64,000 nucleotides of DNA. It comes from Patescibacteria group bacterium (GTDB taxonomy: Bacteria > Patescibacteriota > Minisyncoccia > Minisyncoccales > RBG-13-36-15). This document shows positions 3,744 through 53,091 of the stretch, one piece after another. A program made the position numbers and the translations under genes. Below the pieces are notes generated by a model. The model saw only the letters and a program-made list of their open reading frames with translations. It did not search any database and was not told the DNA's origin. Location of the stretch: assembly GCA_022574775.1 (NCBI GenBank), contig JACZRI010000003.1, positions 34,308-98,307 on the forward strand, written 5' to 3'. Numbering within the stretch: position 1 is the first letter of the stretch; every line of letters starts with the position of its first letter.

Positions 3744-4760
3744 GTGTTTAAGGATAAGGTATACAATAAGAAGATGAAAAAGACGAGTTTGCAAAAGTTA
3801 CTACCAGGTTTAAAGAGAAATGTTTTACTAAAAAACTATACTACTTTTAAAATTGGGGGTGCCGCCCAATTTTTTTTTGTTGCGAAAAATAAAAAAGATG
3901 TAATGAAAGCAGTCCAAACGTCCAAAAAATTAAAGCTTCCATTTTTTATTCTAGGAGAGGGAAGTAATTTGTTGATATCTGATAGGGGATTTAAAGGGTT
4001 AGTTGTCAAAATACGAAATACGAAATACGAGATACCCCGCACCAGAACAAGTTCGGTGCGGGGCAGGCAAAACATTCTGGTTTATGCAGAAGCTGGGGTT
4101 TCTTTCCCTGTTTTGGTTAAGGCAACGACTGAATTGGGATTGTCTGGATTAGAGTGGGCAGGTGGATTGCCAGGTACTCTAGGTGGAGCAATAAGGGGTA
4201 ATGCAGGAGCATTTAGAGGAGAAATAAAAGATGTTATTTTGGAAGTTGAAGCTTTGGATGAAAAAGGTAATTTAAAAACATTATCTCGAAAGCAATGTAA
4301 TTTTTCTTATCGATCCTCTATTTTTAAAAAAAATAACTGGATTGTTTTATCAACTGCGCTAAAACTGGGAAAAGGAAATAAAAAATTGATTCAGTCGATT
4401 GCAAAAAGTCATATAAGATATCGAGAAGAAAAACATCCACTTGAATATCCTAATGCCGGCAGTATTTTTAAAAACTGTGACCTCAAAAAAATTCCAAAAA
4501 GACTAAGAGCCAGTTTTAATAAAGTTGTAAAGACAGATCCATTTCCATTAATACCTTCGGCCCACCTTATTTCAGAAGCTGGATTGAAAGGATTAAGAGT
4601 TGGCCAGGCAGAAGTTTCAACCAAGCACCCAAATTATATTGTTAATCTGGGTAATACTACAGCAAAAGATGTAATAAAATTAATAAATTTAGTAAAGAAA
4701 GAAGTAAAAGATAAATTTGGAATAGTATTAGAAGAGGAAATAAAACTTGTAGGGTTTTAA
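3744..4760 (+). CDS. murB: UDP-N-acetylenolpyruvoylglucosamine reductase MurB (alternative start at 3774); carries a 36 nt in-frame palindromic insertion at 4036-4071
   Basis: NYTTFKIGG and GEGSNLLISD FAD-binding motifs plus a MurB C-terminal domain. The PRTRTSSVRGRQ segment has no counterpart in reference MurB alignments. Confidence 0.8.
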   Translation: MFKDKVYNKKMKKTSLQKLLPGLKRNVLLKNYTTFKIGGAAQFFFVAKNKKDVMKAVQTSKKLKLPFFILGEGSNLLISDRGFKGLVVKIRNTKYEIPRTRTSSVRGRQNILVYAEAGVSFPVLVKATTELGLSGLEWAGGLPGTLGGAIRGNAGAFRGEIKDVILEVEALDEKGNLKTLSRKQCNFSYRSSIFKKNNWIVLSTALKLGKGNKKLIQSIAKSHIRYREEKHPLEYPNAGSIFKNCDLKKIPKRLRASFNKVVKTDPFPLIPSAHLISEAGLKGLRVGQAEVSTKHPNYIVNLGNTTAKDVIKLINLVKKEVKDKFGIVLEEEIKLVGF

Positions 4761-4862
4761 ATTTTTATTTTTTTGATTTCTCTCTTGACCCCGCAGAGAA
4801 TTTTTTACCTTCTTGCAATCTGAGGTTTTTTATAAAAACTTTGTCGAAATTTTTCTAAGGGG

Positions 4863-4891
4863 TTGACATTGTTTCTTGAAATGAAATAATA
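4863..4891 (+). promoter_or_regulatory. Sigma70-like promoter P1 (TTGACA, 16 nt spacer, TGaAATAAT extended -10)
   Basis: TTGACA at 4863-4868 and TG-n-AATAAT at 4882-4890. The same promoter module is duplicated at 5120-5148. Confidence 0.45.
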
Positions 4892-4980
4892 AAGTAATAA
4901 AAATAGATTTTCATAAAAATTTTTCAAATAGCTGGTCGACTATTTGTTTCACTGCTCATAAAACCAATTTATTTTCAATT

Positions 4981-5070
4981 ATGGTAAAGAAAAAAGCAAA
5001 GAAAAAGAAGAAAAAGGCAGTAGTAAAGAAAAAAGCAACAAAGTCTAAAAAAAGAAAAAAAAGAAGATAA
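4981..5070 (+). CDS. Lys-rich 29 aa micro-ORF (MVKKKAKKKKKKAVVKKKATKSKKRKKRR) bracketed by promoter P1 and a terminator; could instead be an sRNA
   Basis: An open frame of 29 codons lies between a consensus-like promoter and an intrinsic terminator. No homolog was recognised. Confidence 0.25.
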   Translation: MVKKKAKKKKKKAVVKKKATKSKKRKKRR

Positions 5071-5081
5071 TATTTCTTTCA

Positions 5082-5114
5082 CCCCGTACCAGTTGGCGCG
5101 GGGTTTTTTTATTT
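5082..5114 (+). terminator. Rho-independent terminator
   Basis: CCCCGtaccagttggcgCGGGG hairpin followed by T9. Confidence 0.55.
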
Positions 5115-6168: not shown

Positions 6169-7317
6169 ATGAACAATAAACTTTCAAAAAAAGAAAAACA
6201 TCTTGCCAAACTTGTTTCTGAATACGCAAAACTGAACCTAAAAGAGTATAAAAAAGTAAGGAATATTACTCAAAAATACAAGACAAAAAAAGTTGAGACC
6301 ATTGATGTTAATTCCAAAAGTGTTTCTGAACTTTTATCTGCGATGGCAAAAACAGGTTTTCAGGGCAGGAAGCTTGGTGAAGTAGTTGATGTTTGGGAAG
6401 AGATGATTAAGGACAAGAATATAACTATCATAATGGGGTATACGGGTTCTTTAAGCACAACAGGTCAGTGGAAGATAATAAATTGGCTGATAGAAAATAG
6501 ATATATAGATGTTTTGGTTTCGACAGGAGCCAACATCTCTGAAGAGATTGTAGAGGGTATGGGGTATCATTACTGGCAAGGAAGCCAGAATGCTGATGAT
6601 GCTAAGTTATTAGATAGCGATATTAACAGGTATTATGATATTTTTGGGGACGATGTAGAGTATCTGGACATGATAAACTTGATAGCTAAATTTATCATGA
6701 CCTGTAAAGAAGGCTATAATTATTCTACAATGGAATTCCTGCGCGACTTTGGCCTGTGGTTGAATAAGAGAAAAGTAGACAGTATTGTAGGGGTTGCTGC
6801 CAAAGCCAAAGTTCCTGTTTTCAGTCCTGCTTTGGTAGATTCAGCGTATGGAGATGCTGTATTGATAGCAAAGAGTAAGAACTTCGATTTAATACTTGAT
6901 CAGGCAAAAGATTATGTAGAATTCATGGGTCTGGCAAGAAAGGTAAAGGATATCGGAGTAATTTACATAGGCGGTGGCGTACCAAAAGACTTCATTCAAC
7001 TTTTAGCGGTATCTGCGCCTCTTGAATATTATGATAAAAAAATACCTGACAGATCTGGAGGCGTTTTTCGTCCTGCAACCAACGAATGGTTTTATCCTCA
7101 CAAGTATGCTATACAAATAACTACTGACAGTCCGCAATGGGGAGGCCTTTCGGGATGCACTTTCGAAGAAGCGAGCAGCTGGGGCAAAGAAGAACCAGGT
7201 GGCAAGAATGTAACGTGCTACTGCGATGCCACCATAGCCTTGCCGATTGTCACACATGCTTTGGCAGAAAGAATCAAAACAAAAAGAAAAGGTACTGATT
7301 TTTCCGACCTTTTTTAA
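6169..7317 (+). CDS. Deoxyhypusine synthase-like protein (DHS family)
   Basis: The GSLSTTG...LVSTGANISEE Rossmann-like DHS signature is present, and the gene sits between pdaD and speB. Confidence 0.65.
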   Translation: MNNKLSKKEKHLAKLVSEYAKLNLKEYKKVRNITQKYKTKKVETIDVNSKSVSELLSAMAKTGFQGRKLGEVVDVWEEMIKDKNITIIMGYTGSLSTTGQWKIINWLIENRYIDVLVSTGANISEEIVEGMGYHYWQGSQNADDAKLLDSDINRYYDIFGDDVEYLDMINLIAKFIMTCKEGYNYSTMEFLRDFGLWLNKRKVDSIVGVAAKAKVPVFSPALVDSAYGDAVLIAKSKNFDLILDQAKDYVEFMGLARKVKDIGVIYIGGGVPKDFIQLLAVSAPLEYYDKKIPDRSGGVFRPATNEWFYPHKYAIQITTDSPQWGGLSGCTFEEASSWGKEEPGGKNVTCYCDATIALPIVTHALAERIKTKRKGTDFSDLF

Positions 7318-7326
7318 AGAATAAAA

Positions 7327-8190
7327 ATGAAGAAACCTTCTTATCCAACTTTGGAGCCTTTCAATTTTCTTGGCCTAGAAAAGCAAGATTATGAAAAAGC
7401 AAAAGTAATAATTTTCCCAGTTCCTTATAGCTCAACCACGTATTGGAAATCAGAAACAAAAGATGGGCCAAGAGCAATCATTGAGGCTTCCAGGCACTTG
7501 GAGCTTTACGATTTAGAGCTAAAAAAAGATCCCTCCAGAATAGGGATTTTTACGTTGGAGCAATTAGAACCATCAAAAGATTCTCCTAAAGCGACCATAG
7601 CCAGAATAAAAAAAATAATAAAAGATCTGTTAAAAGATGGGAAATTCCCCCTGATGATAGGGGGGGAACATTCAATTACTAACGGAGCTATTCAAGCTTT
7701 CAAAGAAAAATTTTTAAACTTTTCTGTTTTGCACATTGATGCCCATACAGATTCGAGAGATGAATTTGAAGGAACAAAATGGCATCATGCTTGTGTAATG
7801 AGAAGGGCAAGGGATTTTAAGATTCCAGTAACGCAAGTTGGAATTCGAAGTATTTCAGAAGAAGAAGCAGAATATTTTAAAAAGAAAAAGATTAAGAGTA
7901 TTTTTTATTCCCCAAATCTTCCGCTTAATAAAATCATTGCCACTTTGAAAAAAAATGTATATATAACCTTTGATTTAGACGTTTTTGATCCTTCTATTAT
8001 GCCCTCTGTGGGAACCCCAGAGCCTGGAGGTCTTGGCTGGTATGAAACCTTAGATCTTATTAGAGCAATTGCGAAAAAAAGAAAAATAATCGGAGCAGAC
8101 GTAGTAGAACTTTGCCCAATTCCAGGAATTTCTGCCCCTGATTTTTTAGCAGCAAAACTGGTGTATAAAATCATAAGCTATATAGCGTAA
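7327..8190 (+). CDS. speB: Agmatinase (arginase/ureohydrolase family)
   Basis: GGEHSIT, DAHTDSRD and DLDVFDPS..PGG manganese-binding motifs. Confidence 0.8.
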   Translation: MKKPSYPTLEPFNFLGLEKQDYEKAKVIIFPVPYSSTTYWKSETKDGPRAIIEASRHLELYDLELKKDPSRIGIFTLEQLEPSKDSPKATIARIKKIIKDLLKDGKFPLMIGGEHSITNGAIQAFKEKFLNFSVLHIDAHTDSRDEFEGTKWHHACVMRRARDFKIPVTQVGIRSISEEEAEYFKKKKIKSIFYSPNLPLNKIIATLKKNVYITFDLDVFDPSIMPSVGTPEPGGLGWYETLDLIRAIAKKRKIIGADVVELCPIPGISAPDFLAAKLVYKIISYIA

Positions 8191-12556: not shown

Positions 12557-13966
12557 ATGTCAAAGAAAAACCTCTATTTTAGTCTTGCCTCTGTTCTTAT
12601 TTTGTTTTTCTTGGCTGCGAATTTAAGTTATCCAAAATATTTTAATCAAGGGGTAGATTTCATTAATTCTAAATTCCAGATTCAGGATTCAAAACTCAGA
12701 ATCCCGCATTTTCCAGAGATTCCATTCAAGTTAGGACTGGACTTGCAGGGAGGAAGCCATCTTTTATATGAGGCTGACTTGTCACAAATAGATCCCAAAG
12801 AGCAAGATTCTGCGATGGATGGTTTGAGGGATGTGATTGAAAGACGGGTCAACCTTTTTGGGGTTGCTGAACCGGTTGTTCAGATTCAGGAAGTGGGGGG
12901 GAGACTTGGGCTAATTGTAGAATTGGCAGGGATAAAAAATGTCGGAGAAGCCATTGAGATGATCGGAGAGACCCCCTATCTTGAATTTAAGGAACAGAGG
13001 TCAGAGGGTGAGACACAAAAAATCCTTGATAAACAAAAAGAAGTTGAGGGCAAGACTTCCGAAGAATTTCAACAAATTTCTGATTGGCAGTTGGCCTTTG
13101 AAGATCCTTATTTTAAAGCCACCTCTTTAACCGGGAAATACCTAGAAAAAGCAGAACTTAATTTTGACCCGACTACAAATGAACCATTAGTGTCGCTTTC
13201 CTTTGACGATGAAGGTTCAAAAATTTTTGAAGAACTGACCTCAAGAAATATCGGAAAACCTCTTCCAGTTTATGTTGATCAATTCCTAATTTCTGCCCCG
13301 GTTGTACAGGGAACTATTTCAGGCGGAAGGGCCCAAATTACAGGTAACTTTACTATTAATACGGCAAAAGAGTTAGCTAGGAATCTTAATGCGGGAGCTC
13401 TTCCGGTTCCAATTAATTTAATCTCTCAACAGACAGTAGGGCCAATTCTTGGCAAGATATCTCTGGAAAGGAGTTTGCGGGCAGGAATTTTCGGATTTTC
13501 AGCTGTTATTCTCTTTATGATTCTTTTTTATCGGTTGCCCGGAGTTTTAGCCTCTATATCCCTGCTTATTTATCTGACTTTTATTTTAGCCATTTTTAAG
13601 TTAATTCCCGTAACTTTAACTTTAGCAGGCATCGCGGGCTTAATTTTGTCAATTGGAATGGCAGTTGACGCGAATATTTTAATTTTTTCCAGAATGCGGG
13701 AAGAATTAAAAGAAGGCAAAGGTTTTTTAATCAGCGTAGAGGAAGGATTTCGAAGGGCTTGGTCTTCCATAAGAGACGGAAATTTTACCACATTAATTGT
13801 GGCTTTAATTTTATTTGGTTTTGGTACGAGTTTCGTTAAAGGATTCGCTTTAGTTTTAAGCTTGGGAGTCATTGTAAGCATGCTTTCTGCAATTTTCATT
13901 ACAAAAAATCTTCTCAAACTGTTTGTCAATACAAGGTTTGAAAAAATAAGTTGGCTGTGGAAATAA
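12557..13966 (+). CDS. secD: Protein translocase subunit SecD
   Basis: Periplasmic domain followed by a 6-TM SecD/SecF region (LDLQGGSHLLYE, GIAG..LSIGMAVDANI). Confidence 0.85.
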   Translation: MSKKNLYFSLASVLILFFLAANLSYPKYFNQGVDFINSKFQIQDSKLRIPHFPEIPFKLGLDLQGGSHLLYEADLSQIDPKEQDSAMDGLRDVIERRVNLFGVAEPVVQIQEVGGRLGLIVELAGIKNVGEAIEMIGETPYLEFKEQRSEGETQKILDKQKEVEGKTSEEFQQISDWQLAFEDPYFKATSLTGKYLEKAELNFDPTTNEPLVSLSFDDEGSKIFEELTSRNIGKPLPVYVDQFLISAPVVQGTISGGRAQITGNFTINTAKELARNLNAGALPVPINLISQQTVGPILGKISLERSLRAGIFGFSAVILFMILFYRLPGVLASISLLIYLTFILAIFKLIPVTLTLAGIAGLILSIGMAVDANILIFSRMREELKEGKGFLISVEEGFRRAWSSIRDGNFTTLIVALILFGFGTSFVKGFALVLSLGVIVSMLSAIFITKNLLKLFVNTRFEKISWLWK

Positions 13967-13976
13967 TGAACTAATT

Positions 13977-14014
13977 TTATCCTTCGATAAACTCAGGACA
14001 CTTCGACTTGCTTG
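13977..14014. repeat. GC-rich palindromic repeat, family B (core ATCCTTCGAnAAnCTCAGGACACTTCGACTT), truncated copy between secD and secF
   Basis: 37 of 40 nt identical to 25962-26001. Related copies lie at 53343 and 63676. Confidence 0.6.
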
Positions 14015-21598: not shown

Positions 21599-21742
21599 TA
21601 TTAGCCCCAGAACCAATCCTCACTTCGTTCGAATGGTACGGGGCAAGCATTAATTATGGTTTAACTTGTTTGGAGTTTCCTATGCCCGCCCCGTATTTCC
21701 CGACTTGTCGGGATAGTACCGGGGTATATTAGTGTCGCGTTT

Positions 21743-25477: not shown

Positions 25478-25853
25478 GATTTTTAATGTCCTAGCAAGTC
25501 TATAAGCCGAATTCTGTATTTGTGTGATCATTTGTCTGGGCCCCGATTTACATCTGAGCTCAAGCGAACTACTCTTTCACAAAAATTCTAGATAAACCCA
25601 GAATTTCTGATTTGTTCTTGCACCCAATAAGGATTTAGCCGTTTCACTCCTACATTGCTGCAGGACTACTCCGACAATAGTCGGAGTGCTCAACCTTTCG
25701 GTTTCGCGCGTCTCTGTTCGCACCTCTAGTCTTACGACCGACGGCCGTTAACCGCTATATTTTTTGACCCCGATATCTATTCGGAGAAATGGTGTTCGGA
25801 CTTTCCTCCCCCTGTCATTGCTGGCAAGGAGTAATCACCCAACTTACTAGGAC
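25478..25853 (-). ncRNA. rnpB: RNase P RNA, bacterial type A
   Basis: The minus strand reads GGGGGAGGAAAGUCCGAACACC (P4 5' strand), GGAGUGAAACGGCU and ACAGAAUUCGGCUUAUAG (P4 3' strand). P1 pairs UCCUAGUAAGU with ACUUGCUAGGA, and the region is GC-enriched. Confidence 0.8.
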
Positions 25854-25961
25854 AATTATATTGTATCGATTTAGACAAAATTTGTCAAGCTTAAGAATTC
25901 TCATTTGAAAAAGATGTCAAAAAAGATTAAAATAAGTTATTCGTGTTGATACTAGATTAAA

Positions 25962-26046
25962 GTTATCCTTCGACAAGCTCAGGACACTTCGACTTACTTG
26001 CACTGAGCGAGGCCTGAGCAGAGCGAAGGACGAGTCGAAGTGTGAC
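25962..26046. repeat. Family B palindromic repeat, full composite copy immediately upstream of and overlapping the murJ start
   Basis: CCTTCGacaaGCTCAGG...CCTGAGCagagCGAAGG and ACACTTCGACT...AGTCGAAGTGT form interleaved inverted pairs. Confidence 0.6.
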
Positions 26047-27768: not shown

Positions 27769-29607
27769 ATGGAAGAACGAAAGAACATAATAAATTTCTG
27801 TATTATTAGCCATATAGATCATGGAAAGTCAACTTTATCTGATCGTTTCTTGGAGCTTACAGGCACTGTTTCAAAAAAGAAAATGCGGCCCCAGTATTTG
27901 GATTTAATGGATCTGGAAAGAGAGAAAGGGATTACCATCAAAATGCAGCCAGTAAGGATGTCCTATACCTTAAACGCCAAACCCTATATTCTAAACCTTA
28001 TTGACACGCCGGGTCATGTTGATTTCTCGTATGAAGTTTCAAGATCCTTGGCTGCAGTTGAGGGCGCAATATTATTGGTTGATGCGACAAAGGGAATTCA
28101 GGCGCAGACTATACACAATTTAGAATTGGCGAAAAAACCCCGATACTATTCATCTTCTGCGGAGTTACGGGGCAGGCAAAATTTCGTAATCATTCCAGTT
28201 GTTAATAAGATTGATTCGTTGTATGCGCGAGTTGAAGAAGTAAAGGCGGAAATTTCCCAGGTTTTAAATGTTGAGGAACGGGAAATTTTATCTATTTCAG
28301 CGAAAAACGGCACCAATGTAGAAGAACTTCTCAAAGTTGTGATAGAAAAAATTCCAAAGCATACTGGCAGCGAGGATGCTCCTTTCAAAGCGCTCATTTT
28401 CGACTCTAAATATGATTCCTTCAAAGGAATAATCGCCTACATAAGAATTTTTGAAGGGAAGATTAAAACAGGAGAGCAGATTTATTTAATAGGAGGGAAG
28501 TCAAAGTCTATTGTGAAAGAGGTAGGGTATTTTAAGCCGGGTTTAACCCCGGCTTTAGAGCTTAAAGCCGGGGAGATCGGGTATTTGGCTACTGGCATTA
28601 AGGAGCCTGGAAGGGTAAGAGTGGGAGACACCATTACGAAATTAAATACTGCTGAAATTAAACCATTGCCGGGCTATAAGGAGCCGAAGCCTGTGGTTTT
28701 TGCCAGTTTATATCCTGAAAGCCCAGAGGATTTTGACCTTCTCAAAGAAAGTTTAAACAAATTAGAACTGTCCGACCCTTCTTTTACGTTTGAGCAAGAA
28801 GCAAAAGAGATGCTGGGAAGAGGGTATCTCTGTGGATTTTTAGGTTCGTTGCATGCTGAAATTGTGATTGAGAGGCTTCAAAGAGAATTTGGACTGCATT
28901 TGATAATTTCTCATCCTTCGGTGGTATATAAAATTATTGATAAAAAAGGAAAGGAAGTTTTAGTTTTTTCTCCTATTGATTGGCCCGATGTATCTTCAAT
29001 CCAAAATACTGAGGAACTCTGGGTGAAGTTAGAAATTATTGTTCCCAAAAAATATTTCGGCAAAATCTTCAAGGTTTTAGAAACAACTAAAGGAAAGCAT
29101 ATTGAGAACAAGTTTTTTGGGAAGGAGCAAGTCTTGTTGATTTATGAGGTTCCTTTGCGAGAAATAATAAAAGACTTTTACGACAAACTAAAAGGAGCTA
29201 CAGAGGGCTTTGCCTCAATGAATTATGAAATTTTAGGTTTTCGAAAGGCAGATTTGGTGAAGTTGGATATTTTGATTGCCGGCAAGAAGGAGAAGGCATT
29301 TTCTAAAATTATCCCCAAAGAAAATACTTTTTTGGAAGGCAGAAAGATTGTAAGCAAATTAAAAGAAGTCTTGCCTCCTCAACAATTTGCTTTACCATTG
29401 CAGGCTGTTATCTCCGGGAAAATTATTGCAAGAGAAACACTTTCTGCGAGAAGAAAGGATGTTCTGGCATCTATCTACGGCGGAGATTATACGCGAAAAA
29501 AGAAACTGTTGCAAAGACAAAAAAAAGGCAAGAAGAAACTAAAAGGGAGATCCTTGCCAATTAAGATCCCCCCCAAAGTGTTCTTAGAAATTTTCAAAAG
29601 CTCTTAG
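27769..29607 (+). CDS. lepA: Elongation factor 4 (LepA); carries a 42 nt in-frame palindromic insertion at 28139-28180
   Basis: G-domain motifs HIDHGKST, DTPGH and NKID plus the LepA C-terminal domain. The PRYYSSSAELRGRQ segment is absent from reference LepA between QT..N and NKID. Confidence 0.9.
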   Translation: MEERKNIINFCIISHIDHGKSTLSDRFLELTGTVSKKKMRPQYLDLMDLEREKGITIKMQPVRMSYTLNAKPYILNLIDTPGHVDFSYEVSRSLAAVEGAILLVDATKGIQAQTIHNLELAKKPRYYSSSAELRGRQNFVIIPVVNKIDSLYARVEEVKAEISQVLNVEEREILSISAKNGTNVEELLKVVIEKIPKHTGSEDAPFKALIFDSKYDSFKGIIAYIRIFEGKIKTGEQIYLIGGKSKSIVKEVGYFKPGLTPALELKAGEIGYLATGIKEPGRVRVGDTITKLNTAEIKPLPGYKEPKPVVFASLYPESPEDFDLLKESLNKLELSDPSFTFEQEAKEMLGRGYLCGFLGSLHAEIVIERLQREFGLHLIISHPSVVYKIIDKKGKEVLVFSPIDWPDVSSIQNTEELWVKLEIIVPKKYFGKIFKVLETTKGKHIENKFFGKEQVLLIYEVPLREIIKDFYDKLKGATEGFASMNYEILGFRKADLVKLDILIAGKKEKAFSKIIPKENTFLEGRKIVSKLKEVLPPQQFALPLQAVISGKIIARETLSARRKDVLASIYGGDYTRKKKLLQRQKKGKKKLKGRSLPIKIPPKVFLEIFKSS

Positions 29608-29636
29608 GAGCACAGGGTTCGAACCAGAATTAATTG

Positions 29637-29845
29637 AGCGGAGCGAATTCAGGCAAGATTCGAGGCGCGAGGAGCGATGCGATGCCGAAGTGCATCGTGA
29701 GCGATGAGCAACAAAGAAGCTTGCCTGAATTCGCTCCGCCCGAAGGGAAACTGAAAAATGGCTAATTTCTTTGTTGCTCCTCCTTGAAGTAGTTTCTAAC
29801 TACTCCTTTGTCGTCGCGTCGCGAAATTACCTCATTTTTCAGTTT
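29637..29845. repeat. Interleaved long inverted repeats in the lepA/mscS convergent intergenic region
   Basis: Stem A is 21/22 bp (29637-29657 with 29719-29739). Stem B is 13 bp (29700-29712 with 29767-29779). Stem C is 14 bp (29748-29761 with 29832-29845). Small hairpins GTAGTT-tcta-AACTAC and CGATGC-cgaagt-GCATCG are also present. Confidence 0.6.
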
Positions 29846-29891
29846 CTCAATCTGATTTTGGTTCAAATCCTGCGCTCTTAGTTCAAGATAG

Positions 29892-30734
29892 TTATTTTTT
29901 CCTCAATAAAACTTCAGTGTGAGGATAGGCGAATTCTACATCTTTTAATGACCGTACATTTTTAAATATTTCCTGAGTAATCAAGCTTCTTATTTCTTCT
30001 CTGGAAACAGCTGGAGTAAAATATCGAACTAAAACATCAACTCCAGATGCTTGGAACCAGATTCTCAGATATGGCTCTTTCATATTTTCTACGAAATTTT
30101 TAAGAACTTTTTTTGCAGCAAGACTTGCGATTTCTTTCGCTTTCTTAAGATTTGATTCAAAGGTTATCGCAAATTTCACTTCATCCAGAATAGTTTCGCC
30201 TGTCTTTGTATAATTGATTATATCCTCATCAAATAATTTTGCATTAGGGACTAAAATTATTCTTCCTGAATTTTCCTCAGCAGCTATTGTTCCTCCAATT
30301 TCTCCAATATGAATGTGGGTTAATGTTATATCCACTACATCACCTTTCGTTTGACCAATAATTATTCTATCTCCAATCTCAAAAGGCCGTTTAATAACCA
30401 TCATCAGCCAGGCAGCAATACCAGTAATTGGTCTTTGTAAGGCCCAACCTAGAGCAGCCGTTAAAAAACCTGCGGCTATTCCTATTCCAGCTAAAGAACC
30501 AGCATAAGATAGAAAAGCAAAAATTATTATTAAGAGAAAAATTAAATATTGAGCTGCCCGAAAGAAAATTTCAATATTGGAACGCTCTTTTTTTGTTTTG
30601 ACTCTCCGGAGGAATCCCCTTTTCGCTATTCTAAGAAGAAAATTAAAAAGCCAAAATAAAATTATAAAAGTTAAAACTGATCTCAGAATATTTACAACCA
30701 GTTCCAAATTGAGATTGTTAATAAAATCTGCCAT
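29892..30734 (-). CDS. Mechanosensitive ion channel, MscS family
   Basis: 3 TM helices followed by an MscS beta-domain (GDRIIIGQTKGDVVDITL). Confidence 0.75.
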   Translation of the reverse strand: MADFINNLNLELVVNILRSVLTFIILFWLFNFLLRIAKRGFLRRVKTKKERSNIEIFFRAAQYLIFLLIIIFAFLSYAGSLAGIGIAAGFLTAALGWALQRPITGIAAWLMMVIKRPFEIGDRIIIGQTKGDVVDITLTHIHIGEIGGTIAAEENSGRIILVPNAKLFDEDIINYTKTGETILDEVKFAITFESNLKKAKEIASLAAKKVLKNFVENMKEPYLRIWFQASGVDVLVRYFTPAVSREEIRSLITQEIFKNVRSLKDVEFAYPHTEVLLRKK

Positions 30735-31285: not shown

Positions 31286-31356
31286 GCGGGATTAGTTGAG
31301 CGGTTCAACGTGACCTTCCCAAGGTTAAAACGCGGGTTCGACTCCCGTATCCCGCT
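31286..31356 (+). tRNA. tRNA-Gly (anticodon CCC); CCA not encoded
   Basis: Manual cloverleaf: acceptor GCGGGAT/ATCCCGC, D-stem GTTG/CAAC, anticodon stem TGACC/GGTTA with loop TTCCCAA, T-loop TTCGACT. Confidence 0.85.
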
Positions 31357-31370
31357 TAAGAAACTGATAT

Positions 31371-31442
31371 GCCAGTGTAGCTCAGCGGCAGAGCAGGGCT
31401 TTCGTAAAGCTCAGGTCGTCGGTTCGAGTCCGACCGCTGGCT
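31371..31442 (+). tRNA. tRNA-Thr (anticodon CGT); CCA not encoded
   Basis: Acceptor GCCAGTG/CGCTGGC, D-stem GCTC/GAGC, anticodon loop TTCGTAA, T-loop TTCGAGT. Confidence 0.85.
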
Positions 31443-31488
31443 CAATACAAAGATTGATTTTTAATACATTTCGTGTTAAAATAAAAAA

Positions 31489-34259: not shown

Positions 34260-34330
34260 TGGGAGGTCATCTAATGGTAGGATGCAGGCCTCTGGAGCCT
34301 GGCATGATGGTTCGAGTCCATCCCTCCCAG
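34260..34330 (+). tRNA. tRNA-Gln (anticodon CTG); CCA not encoded
   Basis: Acceptor TGGGAGG/CCTCCCA, anticodon stem CAGGC/GCCTG with loop CTCTGGA, T-arm GATGG-TTCGAGT-CCATC. Confidence 0.75.
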
Positions 34331-34446
34331 CTGTGGATATAATTTTAGTACGGGGTAAATAGGACTTGGTTCGCCTGCCCCGCTGTGCCTCCCCAGTAAC
34401 CTTGAGCATAGTTCGAGAGACCGAGAGGTGTTATTTACGAATTCTA

Positions 34447-34470
34447 AAATCGCCAAGAAGGCGGTTTTTT
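34447..34470 (+). terminator. Rho-independent terminator (member of a repeated terminator module)
   Basis: CGCCaagaaGGCG hairpin followed by T6. The same roughly 50 nt module recurs at 40872-40922, and its core at 46483-46508 and 44072-44128. Confidence 0.6.
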
Positions 34471-40868: not shown

Positions 40869-40895
40869 GTCTGACCGAAACGCGTTATTTACGAA

Positions 40896-40930
40896 TTCTA
40901 AAATCACCAAGAAGGCGGTTTTCTTTTATT
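40896..40930 (+). terminator. Rho-independent terminator (repeat of the 34416-34468 module)
   Basis: CACCaagaaGGCGG hairpin followed by TTTTCTTTT. The upstream 30 nt are also shared with the 34416 copy. Confidence 0.55.
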
Positions 40931-46219: not shown

Positions 46220-46482
46220 ACAAACTCGTTTTTAACTTATAAATATTAGATTAATCATATCACGGTTTGGATTTTTACTTGAACCATATGTCATTTCACG
46301 GCAGAACCATAATGAGATATTAAGCTAGGAGTTTCGGATCAATTAATTTCTCCTTTGCATCAGCTTCGTTAAACACGATCGTTTCTCATATCATCCTAAA
46401 AACAATCCGAGAGTTGCTTGCTCTGAATTTATTGAAGGGTTGTCTCGGGCCCGACTTTTTTTATAGCTTTTAACGAGATTTA

Positions 46483-46508
46483 AAAATCGCCAAGAAGGCG
46501 GTTTTTTG
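46483..46508 (+). terminator. Rho-independent terminator (same module as 34447)
   Basis: AAAATCGCCAAGAAGGCGGTTTTTTG. Confidence 0.6.
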
Positions 46509-52877: not shown

Positions 52878-53091
52878 ATCCTTTCGGATTTGAGTACGGG
52901 GCTAGAATACGAAATACATACGTTATTTTACAAGATGCTCGCCCCGTACCATGCGAACGCAGTGAGAATTGGTACTGGGGCAACCTCCAAAGAAAAAATA
53001 TAATGTTATCGCTCGCTCGGCGCCGGTAAGCCGTAGCTCGCGATATTTGTTCGAGACCTTTTTAAAAAAAGGTTCTCGAGCTCTCAAAATT

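Follow-up and report, generated by a model that had tools for sequence, protein, structure and literature searches.

The window analyzed here is a 64,000-nucleotide (nt) stretch of DNA from a Patescibacteria group bacterium (contig JACZRI010000003.1), and the subject of this report is a compactly folded element of about 279 nt at positions 29604-29882, between the converging genes for elongation factor 4 (lepA) and an MscS-type channel. We read this element as one copy of a family of non-autonomous, structure-dependent mobile elements, resembling miniature inverted-repeat transposable elements (MITEs) but atypical of them, and assign this reading a probability of about 0.6. The element is inserted DNA: it is absent in the closest relatives, occurs at unrelated sites, is found as a filled and an empty version of the same site, and splits a gene. 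The family has so far been found only in Patescibacteria, where it sits beside different genes at each locus. The interleaved A-B-A'-C-B'-C' order of its stems is a selected feature and no accident of nesting.

Architecture of the element

A family profile, which includes the window copy itself, matches positions 29604-29880 (nhmmer, E = 5e-78), and among the copies conservation stops at limits that correspond to 29604-29882. All features of the element are given on the + strand, the strand with the better consensus fold. The two ends form an outer stem of 26-28 bp. Its 5' arm (29604-29632, from an inverted-repeat scan and the minimum-free-energy (MFE) fold) overlaps the lepA stop codon, TAG at 29605-29607, and its 3' arm (29855-29882) ends 10 nt short of the stop codon of the opposite-strand MscS gene; within these arms, the inverted repeat pairs 29605-29630 with 29855-29880 over 26 nt at 81% complementarity.

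The outer stem encloses two hairpins, A and C, each with an internal bubble and an apical hairpin. Hairpin A has arms at 29636-29661 and 29716-29741, the latter placed by the inverted-repeat scan and by family pairing. The 5' arm contains the 22-mer GAGCGGAGCGAATTCAGGCAAG (29636-29657), whose complement at 29720-29741 has a single mismatch; such matches arose in 0 of 100 shuffles, and the scan describes the same stem as 24-nt arms, 96% complementary, with a spacing of 54 nt. The bubble of A has two purine-rich strands, D on the 5' side (GATTCGAGGCGCGAGGAGCGA, 29657-29677) and B on the 3' side (29703-29725), and the apical hairpin, hp1, stands at 29678-29699. A mini-hairpin, CCC-GAA-GGG (29739-29747), lies between A and C. 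The arms of hairpin C are at 29747-29769 and 29823-29846, the second placed by the inverted-repeat scan, RNAalifold, and family pairing; they comprise a perfect 14-bp part, in which GAAACTGAAAAATG (29747-29760) pairs with CATTTTTCAGTTTC (29833-29846) at 14 of 14 positions, and an inner 7 bp from RNAalifold. The bubble of C is pyrimidine-rich on both strands, B' on the 5' side (29760-29782) and D' on the 3' side (29814-29828, partly degenerate in the window copy), with the apical hairpin hp2 at 29786-29806. Stem C thus encloses B' together with the 6-bp hairpin GTAGTT/AACTAC of hp2 (29789-29803; 29789-29794 with 29798-29803).

Across the two hairpins, B pairs with B' (29703-29725 with 29760-29782; 23 nt, 83% complementary) with a perfect 13-nt core (29706-29718 with 29767-29779), and D pairs with D' (about 29657-29670 with 29814-29828). 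The three interleaved stems of the original prediction, A, B, and C, are therefore all present where it had placed them and lie far above chance by inverted-repeat scan and shuffling; the 5' half of B is within the loop of A and the 3' half beyond A, as had been described, and the two flanking genes do converge on the region. The outer inverted repeat and the D:D' cross-pairing had been missed.

The 296-nt region around the element folds with an MFE of -128.1 kcal/mol on the + strand and -125.2 on the - strand, against means of -83 and -76 for dinucleotide shuffles (z = -9.4 and -9.9; 0 of 200 shuffles as stable). In the MFE fold, the outer stem closes hairpins A and C side by side. The region is also a local peak of G+C, 55-58% compared to a background of 31-40%.

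A family of copies in Patescibacteria

Two independent baits were used to find further copies, of which there are about 25, in genomes of Patescibacteria and in metagenome contigs. The first, a 20-mer of arm A (GCGGAGCGAATTCAGGCAAG) searched against one genome per GTDB species, gave seven matches, four of them in Patescibacteria (three Saccharibacteria and one other) and three due to chance, inside GC-rich genes. The four GTDB copies align by blastn with the 296-nt query region over 251-288 nt at 76-82% identity. The second, for metagenomes, consisted of AGGCGCGAGGAG, a gap of 35-65 nt, and TTGCCTGAAT; it returned 28 loci, of which 26 are true copies, on low-GC contigs. AGGCGCGAGGAG lies in D and is identical in the four GTDB copies, which were found without it as bait, while its identity in the metagenome copies is not independent, since the pattern required it. 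Because exact words served as baits, the diversity and host range of the family are under-sampled.

The family profile and an alignment, A2, were made from 21 distinct copies, and all counts of family structure given below refer to A2. This nhmmer profile, rather than a covariance model of the whole element, was used for the family search, and it matches all copies with E = 1e-46 to 1e-85. The copies are 265-315 nt long and share 55-87% pairwise identity (median, 70%). Their neighbors are housekeeping genes that differ from locus to locus, for example those for TyrRS, a DEAD helicase, Jag, PBP, Dut, and L11. No transposase, integrase, or reverse transcriptase gene was seen adjoining any copy. 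In four contigs (L032, L037, L040, and L043), tRNA genes lie 50-1500 nt from the element, possibly a mild association. Contig L038 carries a partial fragment (3-83; profile positions 139-219) directly upstream of a copy without the 5' outer arm (103-354), in a rearranged or tandem arrangement; this rearranged fragment is the exception to the single-copy occurrence described further below.

The element matches nothing that we could find described. Rfam 15 had no match on the element when the window was searched at gathering thresholds, only chance-level matches of at most 19 bits when the element region was searched at E <= 10, and nothing on the element in 13 other copies at E <= 1; thus, the Rfam search that had been proposed for the region brought no family. 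ARAGORN called no tRNA or tmRNA at the element, and a literature search found no description of it or of mobile non-coding elements of Patescibacteria. There were no matches to it among viral contigs, GenBank phages, and PLSDB plasmids, and we rejected a phage, plasmid, or viral origin on these grounds. A tRNA- or tmRNA-like end was considered because the motif GGTTCGAAYCC in the outer arms is reminiscent of a T arm, and rejected: ARAGORN and the Rfam tRNA model were negative, the flanking bases form no T stem, the motif does not match the tRNAs of the window, and TTCGAA is not conserved. Likewise, an ATG after GGGA opens a peptide M-A/D-D-F-F-V-A-P-P in many copies, but no frame stays open, with a stop at codon 10 in the window and in the copy on L019 and no ATG in some copies; across the 21 copies, no open reading frame (ORF) is conserved in any of the six frames.

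Conserved pairing across the family

The order of modules is constant in 21 of 21 distinct copies: outer stem, A, D, hp1, B, mini-hairpin, C, B', hp2, D'. From the alignment, RNAalifold returns a fold with the outer stem and hairpins A and C, in which 34 of 67 pairs have changes on both sides. When D:D' and B:B' are added to this structure, 90.5% of cells pair, compared to 36-51% when the partners are slid by 1-3 columns, and none of 500 shuffles reaches the named structure in any of five measures.

The modules differ in how they are conserved. The closing stem formed by the two ends is 26-33 bp long across the family and has both-side changes in 16 of its 18 pairs. The stem of hairpin A is nearly invariant (96.8% paired), as are the two purine-rich strands of its bubble, whereas hairpin C covaries at 9 of 14 pairs with 97.3% of cells paired. 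D:D' is paired in 88.7% of cells and mostly invariant, and B:B' in 79.9%, with four pairs changed on both sides. The apical elements hp1 and hp2 form hairpins in every copy (21/21), with at least 5 bp in hp1, although their sequences are unrelated among copies. The CCC...GGG mini-hairpin is also present in all 21 copies, with a variable loop (GAA, TTC, AAA, and others).

The two strands of one bubble cannot pair with each other, since both are purine-rich in A and both are pyrimidine-rich in C. Each bubble is instead complementary to the other through D:D' and B:B', so that the element can be folded either as two hairpins or as a rod with a central cruciform. From this modeling, we consider that the element has two conserved and partly exclusive folds. 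Formation of all pairings at once as a double crossover was considered and rejected, because the D:D' and B:B' helices, at 14 and 13 bp, are not multiples of a half-turn in length; on this geometric argument we infer that the two folds are alternatives. The original prediction held that this topology is not a simple terminator, which is borne out by the conservation of the interleaving throughout the family.

In L018 (9539-10057), L031, L022 (1466-1966), and L024, hp2 is replaced by a second palindromic rod of about 250 nt. The rod is a different foldback sequence nested in the element, and L028 has the same site and flanks without it.

Evidence for insertion

The contigs L028 and L033 are collinear, with 80-92% identity, and differ in that a site filled by the element in L028 is empty in L033. 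The two flanks match at 100% over 33 and 97 nt, and the break falls exactly at the tips of the outer stem: the empty site in L033 reads AAAGCATT(T)ATGC, and the filled site in L028 reads AAAGCATT(AAGGAGTGC...GCACTCCC)ATGC.

L033 has a copy of its own, 87% identical and 2.1 kb away, inside a minus-strand gene (6536-7526) for a TspO/MBR protein fused to a C-terminal Gmad2 immunoglobulin-like domain. As L033 stands, the ORF that enters from the side of TspO terminates about 40 nt into the element. Deleting positions 6761-7058 restores an ORF of 236 codons and a contiguous Gmad2 Pfam match that covers positions 2-83 of the 86 in the profile. The length of the insertion, 298 nt, is not divisible by three, and the Gmad2 domain is cut short by it. 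The TspO gene of L028 ends without a Gmad2 domain, so that the fusion region is variable besides being an insertion site.

At the window locus itself, the region downstream of lepA was compared with that of the five closest LepA relatives (73-75% identity), all of which are without the element. The syntenic comparison that had been proposed for the region is therefore consistent with insertion of the whole unit, and the possibility of an inserted element, one of several that had been raised, has gained support from these absences, from the copies at unrelated loci, from the filled and empty sites, and from the split gene. Three of the five relatives have longer contigs (L005-L009), with MurJ-LepA-DivIC synteny and a spacer of 130-240 nt that contains neither the element nor the MscS gene; contigs L045 and L046 stop shortly after lepA, and the absence of MscS rests on these three. 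The outer stem of the window copy starts within the lepA stop codon, TCT TAG|GAGCAC, where the relatives have TCT TAA followed by an A-rich spacer.

Flanking genes and the lepA locus

In the window, lepA occupies 27769-29607 on the + strand, with its stop codon inside the outer stem, and the MscS-type gene 29892-30734 on the - strand. A 155.7-kb metagenome contig in ENA contains the window sequence without differences. LepA homologs place the window in Patescibacteria; source names among the matches listed include Nealsonbacteria, Pacebacteria, and Parcubacteria.

The relatives have, between lepA and divIC, a conserved minus-strand ORF of about 32-34 codons, as read by eye (L006, ~5000-5085; L008, ~4810-4900; L009, ~4160-4250; L046, ~2420-2520), which resembles a small membrane peptide (..F/IFKIIWxIL..); in the window, this position is taken by the MscS-type gene. 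In the closest complete relative, the lepA-divIC spacer contains unrelated GC-rich hairpins (L006, 4890-4960), for example GAACCGAGCACATAAATTATATGCTCGGTTC, and because of these the spacer seems to collect structured inserts. The window also has a terminator-like hairpin with a T-run on the minus strand inside the 3' end of lepA (29543-29574), which a read-through transcript of the MscS gene would reach after traversing the element.

One family member, in L032 (2-675, to be compared with window positions 29560-29882), lies directly after a lepA stop codon (LepA_C Pfam match), as does the window copy, but with the interior reversed. The C terminus of the L032 LepA appears more diverged than those of the element-free relatives, as judged by eye rather than by a computed identity. 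This placement could reflect a preferred target or an old insertion that was later flipped across the outer repeat.

An independent Logan assembly of the same strain (SRR12886643; loci L004 and L002) has a contig that ends at 29661, the inner end of arm A, and a next contig that begins at 29835, inside arm C; the intervening 173 nt are missing. This gap may reflect heterogeneity or a drop in coverage within the element. Inversion was rejected as the cause of the breaks, as 29661 and 29835 do not coincide exactly with the expected inversion points.

Ends, target sites, and strand preference

Each full-length copy has the outer inverted repeat, of which the complementarity and not the sequence is kept. 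How alike two copies are in the outermost 14 nt is almost independent of how alike they are inside (r = 0.27). The copies on L032 and L041, for instance, are 90% identical inside but only about 40% at the tips, while those on L012 and L040 have tips that are 93-100% identical with an interior at 83%. Within each copy, the two tips remain complementary despite this drift.

Three insertion sites could be reconstructed, and all are AT-rich and nearly palindromic: GCATT|T|ATGC, TGGTTT|AAAGCA (in the Gmad2 gene), and CTCTTA|G. The 5' flank has a loose CYTWR consensus that is possibly part of the element itself. A fixed target duplication of TA, TTA, or TTAA was rejected because the flanks are inconsistent with it, and copying of the tips from the target site was rejected because the empty site in L033 holds neither tip sequence.

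There is modest evidence that one strand is the selected folded form. In the three stems there are 72 G-T cells, compared to 26 A-C cells, and the consensus fold has an energy of -72.4 kcal/mol on the + strand and -58.0 on the - strand. Orientation relative to the flanking genes shows no bias, at roughly seven sense and seven antisense by our own reading. A TATAAT box abuts only two or three distinct copies (L016/L044 and L022/L024), and a dedicated promoter was rejected because the -10 box is found at so few. Since conservation ends at the tips, -10 boxes are few, and orientation is unbiased, a single-stranded DNA intermediate appears more plausible than a cis-acting RNA.

Weighing the alternatives

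Several observations weigh against a mobile element. The profile finds one copy per contig in 288 kb of window and loci, including the 64-kb window, and the 20-mer occurs once in each of the four GTDB genomes. No clean target-site duplication can be defined, as the flanks of the 21 copies have no consistent direct repeat that is separable from the palindromic ends. We found no autonomous partner or mobilizing enzyme, in capped scans that included no search for copies on either side of a gene. The asymmetry between strands is modest, since a single nearly fixed pair accounts for 17 of the 72 G-T cells and the MFE favors the + strand in only 16 of 21 copies. The filled and empty pair could also arise by precise deletion of a palindrome, so that the direct evidence for insertion consists of the interrupted Gmad2 gene and the diversity of loci. 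Finally, covariation, a conserved core, and single-copy occurrence are also expected of a functional RNA gene.

Such a gene, which would stand alone, give a structured non-coding RNA from the + strand, and pass horizontally among Patescibacteria, with gene flux as the source of its apparent mobility, is an unlikely explanation that still deserves serious attention. It would account for the strong covariation of the closing stem, hairpin C, and the apical hairpins around an invariant core, for the single copy per contig or genome, for the G-U pairs and consensus energy that favor one strand, for length variation in hp1 and hp2 like that of peripheral RNA stems, and for the TATAAT box directly upstream of the copies on L016/L044 and L022/L024. 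It fits poorly, however, with conservation that stops exactly at the stem tips and with the absence of a promoter-like flank from most copies; the window copy begins inside the lepA stop codon, and another copy disrupts the coding gene in which it lies. The lack of orientation bias, the rarity of the family (four GTDB species matched by the 20-mer), and the lack of an Rfam family match in 14 copies argue in the same direction. The proposal of an independent small RNA gene in the original prediction is not supported, since neither promoter nor terminator is conserved and conservation ends at the outer-stem tips.

It is improbable that the element is a site for a site-specific recombinase or invertase, either an att-like docking site or an invertible module whose nested repeats are duplex binding or crossover sites. 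The nested inverted-repeat pairs, among them the nearly invariant 20-bp pair of A, do resemble recombinase substrates; the L032 element stands at the same place after lepA with the opposite interior, the second assembly of the strain breaks at 29661 and resumes at 29835, and hp2 recurrently takes extra insertions. But there is no recombinase gene near any locus, the segments between repeats (54-72 bp) are very short for inversion, and the assembly breaks do not fit exactly those predicted if a loop or the entire interior had been inverted. The covariation of the stems fits strand pairing better than protein recognition, and two independent insertions, in the window and in L032, are equally possible, because the L032 host is more distant than the element-free relatives.

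Still less credit is due to the idea that several small, independent MITEs are nested in one another. The inverted repeats interleave, and there is a real extra palindrome inside hp2 in L018/L031 and L022/L024, yet each of the 21 distinct copies has the full set of modules in one order, none of them turns up by itself in the 288 kb apart from the rearranged L038 fragment, and the interleaved pairings are conserved as such. Nested MITEs, which had been among the original suggestions, can thus be set aside. We give the least weight of all to a bidirectional terminator or riboswitch-like regulator of lepA and the MscS gene that evolved locally. A position between converging genes, extreme stability on both strands, and possible alternative pairings would suit such a regulator, but the same sequence stands beside unrelated genes in other classes, and the closest relatives are without it. 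A terminator scan of 29300-30100 calls none inside the element, its sole site being the minus-strand one in lepA (29574-29543), and the best riboswitch in Rfam, SAH, scores 16 bits against a gathering score of 37. The riboswitch or cis-regulatory RNA that had been suggested likewise finds no conserved neighbor gene, orientation preference, or Rfam match. Of the original suggestions, the inserted element of MITE type is supported and the recombination site is kept as an improbable one; the riboswitch and the small RNA gene lack support, and the nested MITEs do not apply.

Proposed mechanism and significance

A mobile element of this kind must be moved in trans, because it has no gene of its own. 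We propose that the mobilizing enzyme would read a folded single strand, recognizing shape together with the conserved core, because the ends vary freely and yet stay complementary while the internal core is fixed. The Y1 transposases of the IS200/IS605 type and the integron integrases acting on attC are known examples of folded-strand recognition. A classical transposase that reads duplex terminal inverted repeats fits less well, since such an enzyme should conserve the terminal repeats. Insertion would be into short AT-rich, nearly palindromic sites without clear target duplication, and in this lineage the element has inserted at the lepA stop codon. As a consequence of that position, the lepA transcript (in sense) and the MscS transcript (in antisense) would each carry a 3' structure of about -125 kcal/mol, which could be a barrier or a processing site and may affect termination or stability. 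Any such effect on the 3' ends of lepA and MscS is probably incidental and not the reason for the existence of the element.

A bolder and doubtful proposal is that the family, confined to Patescibacteria, represents a mobile nucleic acid of a new, structure-dependent class, which spreads horizontally as a single copy, with the bubble switch between two hairpins and a rod with cruciform as its working part, and which is not a decaying MITE. The switch might then be the substrate of a single-strand recombinase acting on competence-acquired DNA, or a functional RNA.

If the element is mobile as we propose, an element of about 270 nt without genes moves between classes (Saccharibacteria and Paceibacteria-like lineages) and is able to disrupt genes. 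Its conservation is the reverse of that of a classical transposon, with ends that vary but stay paired and an interior that is fixed, a pattern that suggests recognition as a folded strand. The genomes of Patescibacteria are very small and contain little repetitive DNA. Through the mobilizing enzyme, a route of gene flow would become known in organisms for which genetic manipulation is not yet possible, and the enzyme might provide an insertion tool for them. For annotation, the family should be masked or modeled, lest its hairpins be called terminators, riboswitches, or small RNAs.

Other features of the window

The window contains a 72-nt direct repeat with 78% identity (13943-14014 and 25929-26000), one copy of which lies just upstream of the RNase P RNA gene, and a 47-nt inverted pair, 89% complementary, with its members 31 kb apart (21604-21650 and 52935-52981). 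A terminator-like motif, AAAATCGCCAAGAAGGCGGTTTT, occurs in three copies (34419-34468, 40873-40922, and 46456-46505). RNA genes are found at 25487-25850 (-), 31286-31443 (+), and 34260-34331 (+); they comprise RNase P RNA class A (125 bits), tRNA-Gly(CCC), tRNA-Thr(CGT), and tRNA-Gln(CTG).

Comparison with known systems

The element shares with MITEs a small size (less than about 600 bp), the lack of coding capacity, terminal inverted repeats, and evidence of insertion, but many copies per genome, which are also typical of MITEs, were not seen in the 288 kb or in the four GTDB genomes. Since copy number, conserved terminal repeats, a target duplication, an autonomous partner, and the attC boxes do not clearly link it to any one of the systems below, we file it as a variant of the MITE kind and under no named family.

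Correia, ERIC, and RUP elements are present in tens to hundreds of copies per genome and have conserved terminal repeats, a TA duplication, and simple interiors. Our element is like them in being small and non-coding, with inverted ends of about 26 bp and AT-rich intergenic sites near gene ends, and it too might be co-transcribed with flanking genes as a long hairpin. It differs in that it is single-copy as seen, with tips that are variable yet complementary, a conserved interior, and no clean duplication.

PATEs and REPINs, which derive from IS200/IS605 and depend on Y1/HUH enzymes, have similar left and right sub-terminal hairpins, asymmetric ends, and a fixed motif of 4-5 nt, and their ends do not pair with each other. 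The likeness here is in the absence of a clear target duplication, the folded hairpins, the non-autonomous character, and an asymmetry consistent with one active strand. In contrast, the A and C stems of our element are unrelated and its ends form a helix of 26-33 bp; no TnpA or RAYT gene was seen near any copy.

The attC sites of integrons are 57-141 nt long and contain R and L boxes (GTTRRRY); each is preceded by a cassette ORF, and they form arrays. As in attC, pairing is kept while the sequence drifts and one strand is preferred, whereas boxes, a cassette ORF, and arrays were not seen for the element. Rickettsia palindromic elements (RPE), which are multi-copy and about 100-150 bp long, usually insert in frame and thereby spare the host protein. 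They resemble our element as palindromic selfish insertions in a reduced genome that can land inside protein-coding genes, although the insertion in L033, at 298 nt, is out of frame and truncates the Gmad2 domain.

The inverted terminal repeat of adeno-associated virus, a parvovirus, is a folded sequence of about 125 nt that forms the terminus of a linear single-stranded genome and lacks cross-complementary bubbles. Its T-shaped A-B-B'-C-C'-A' arrangement has, like our element, an outer stem that closes two side-by-side hairpins; the likeness is one of shape only, as the element is internal to a bacterial chromosome. Among all these systems, the element works most like the palindromic MITEs (Correia, ERIC, RUP, and RPE) and the substrates that are recognized by their structure, the IS200/IS605 ends and attC.

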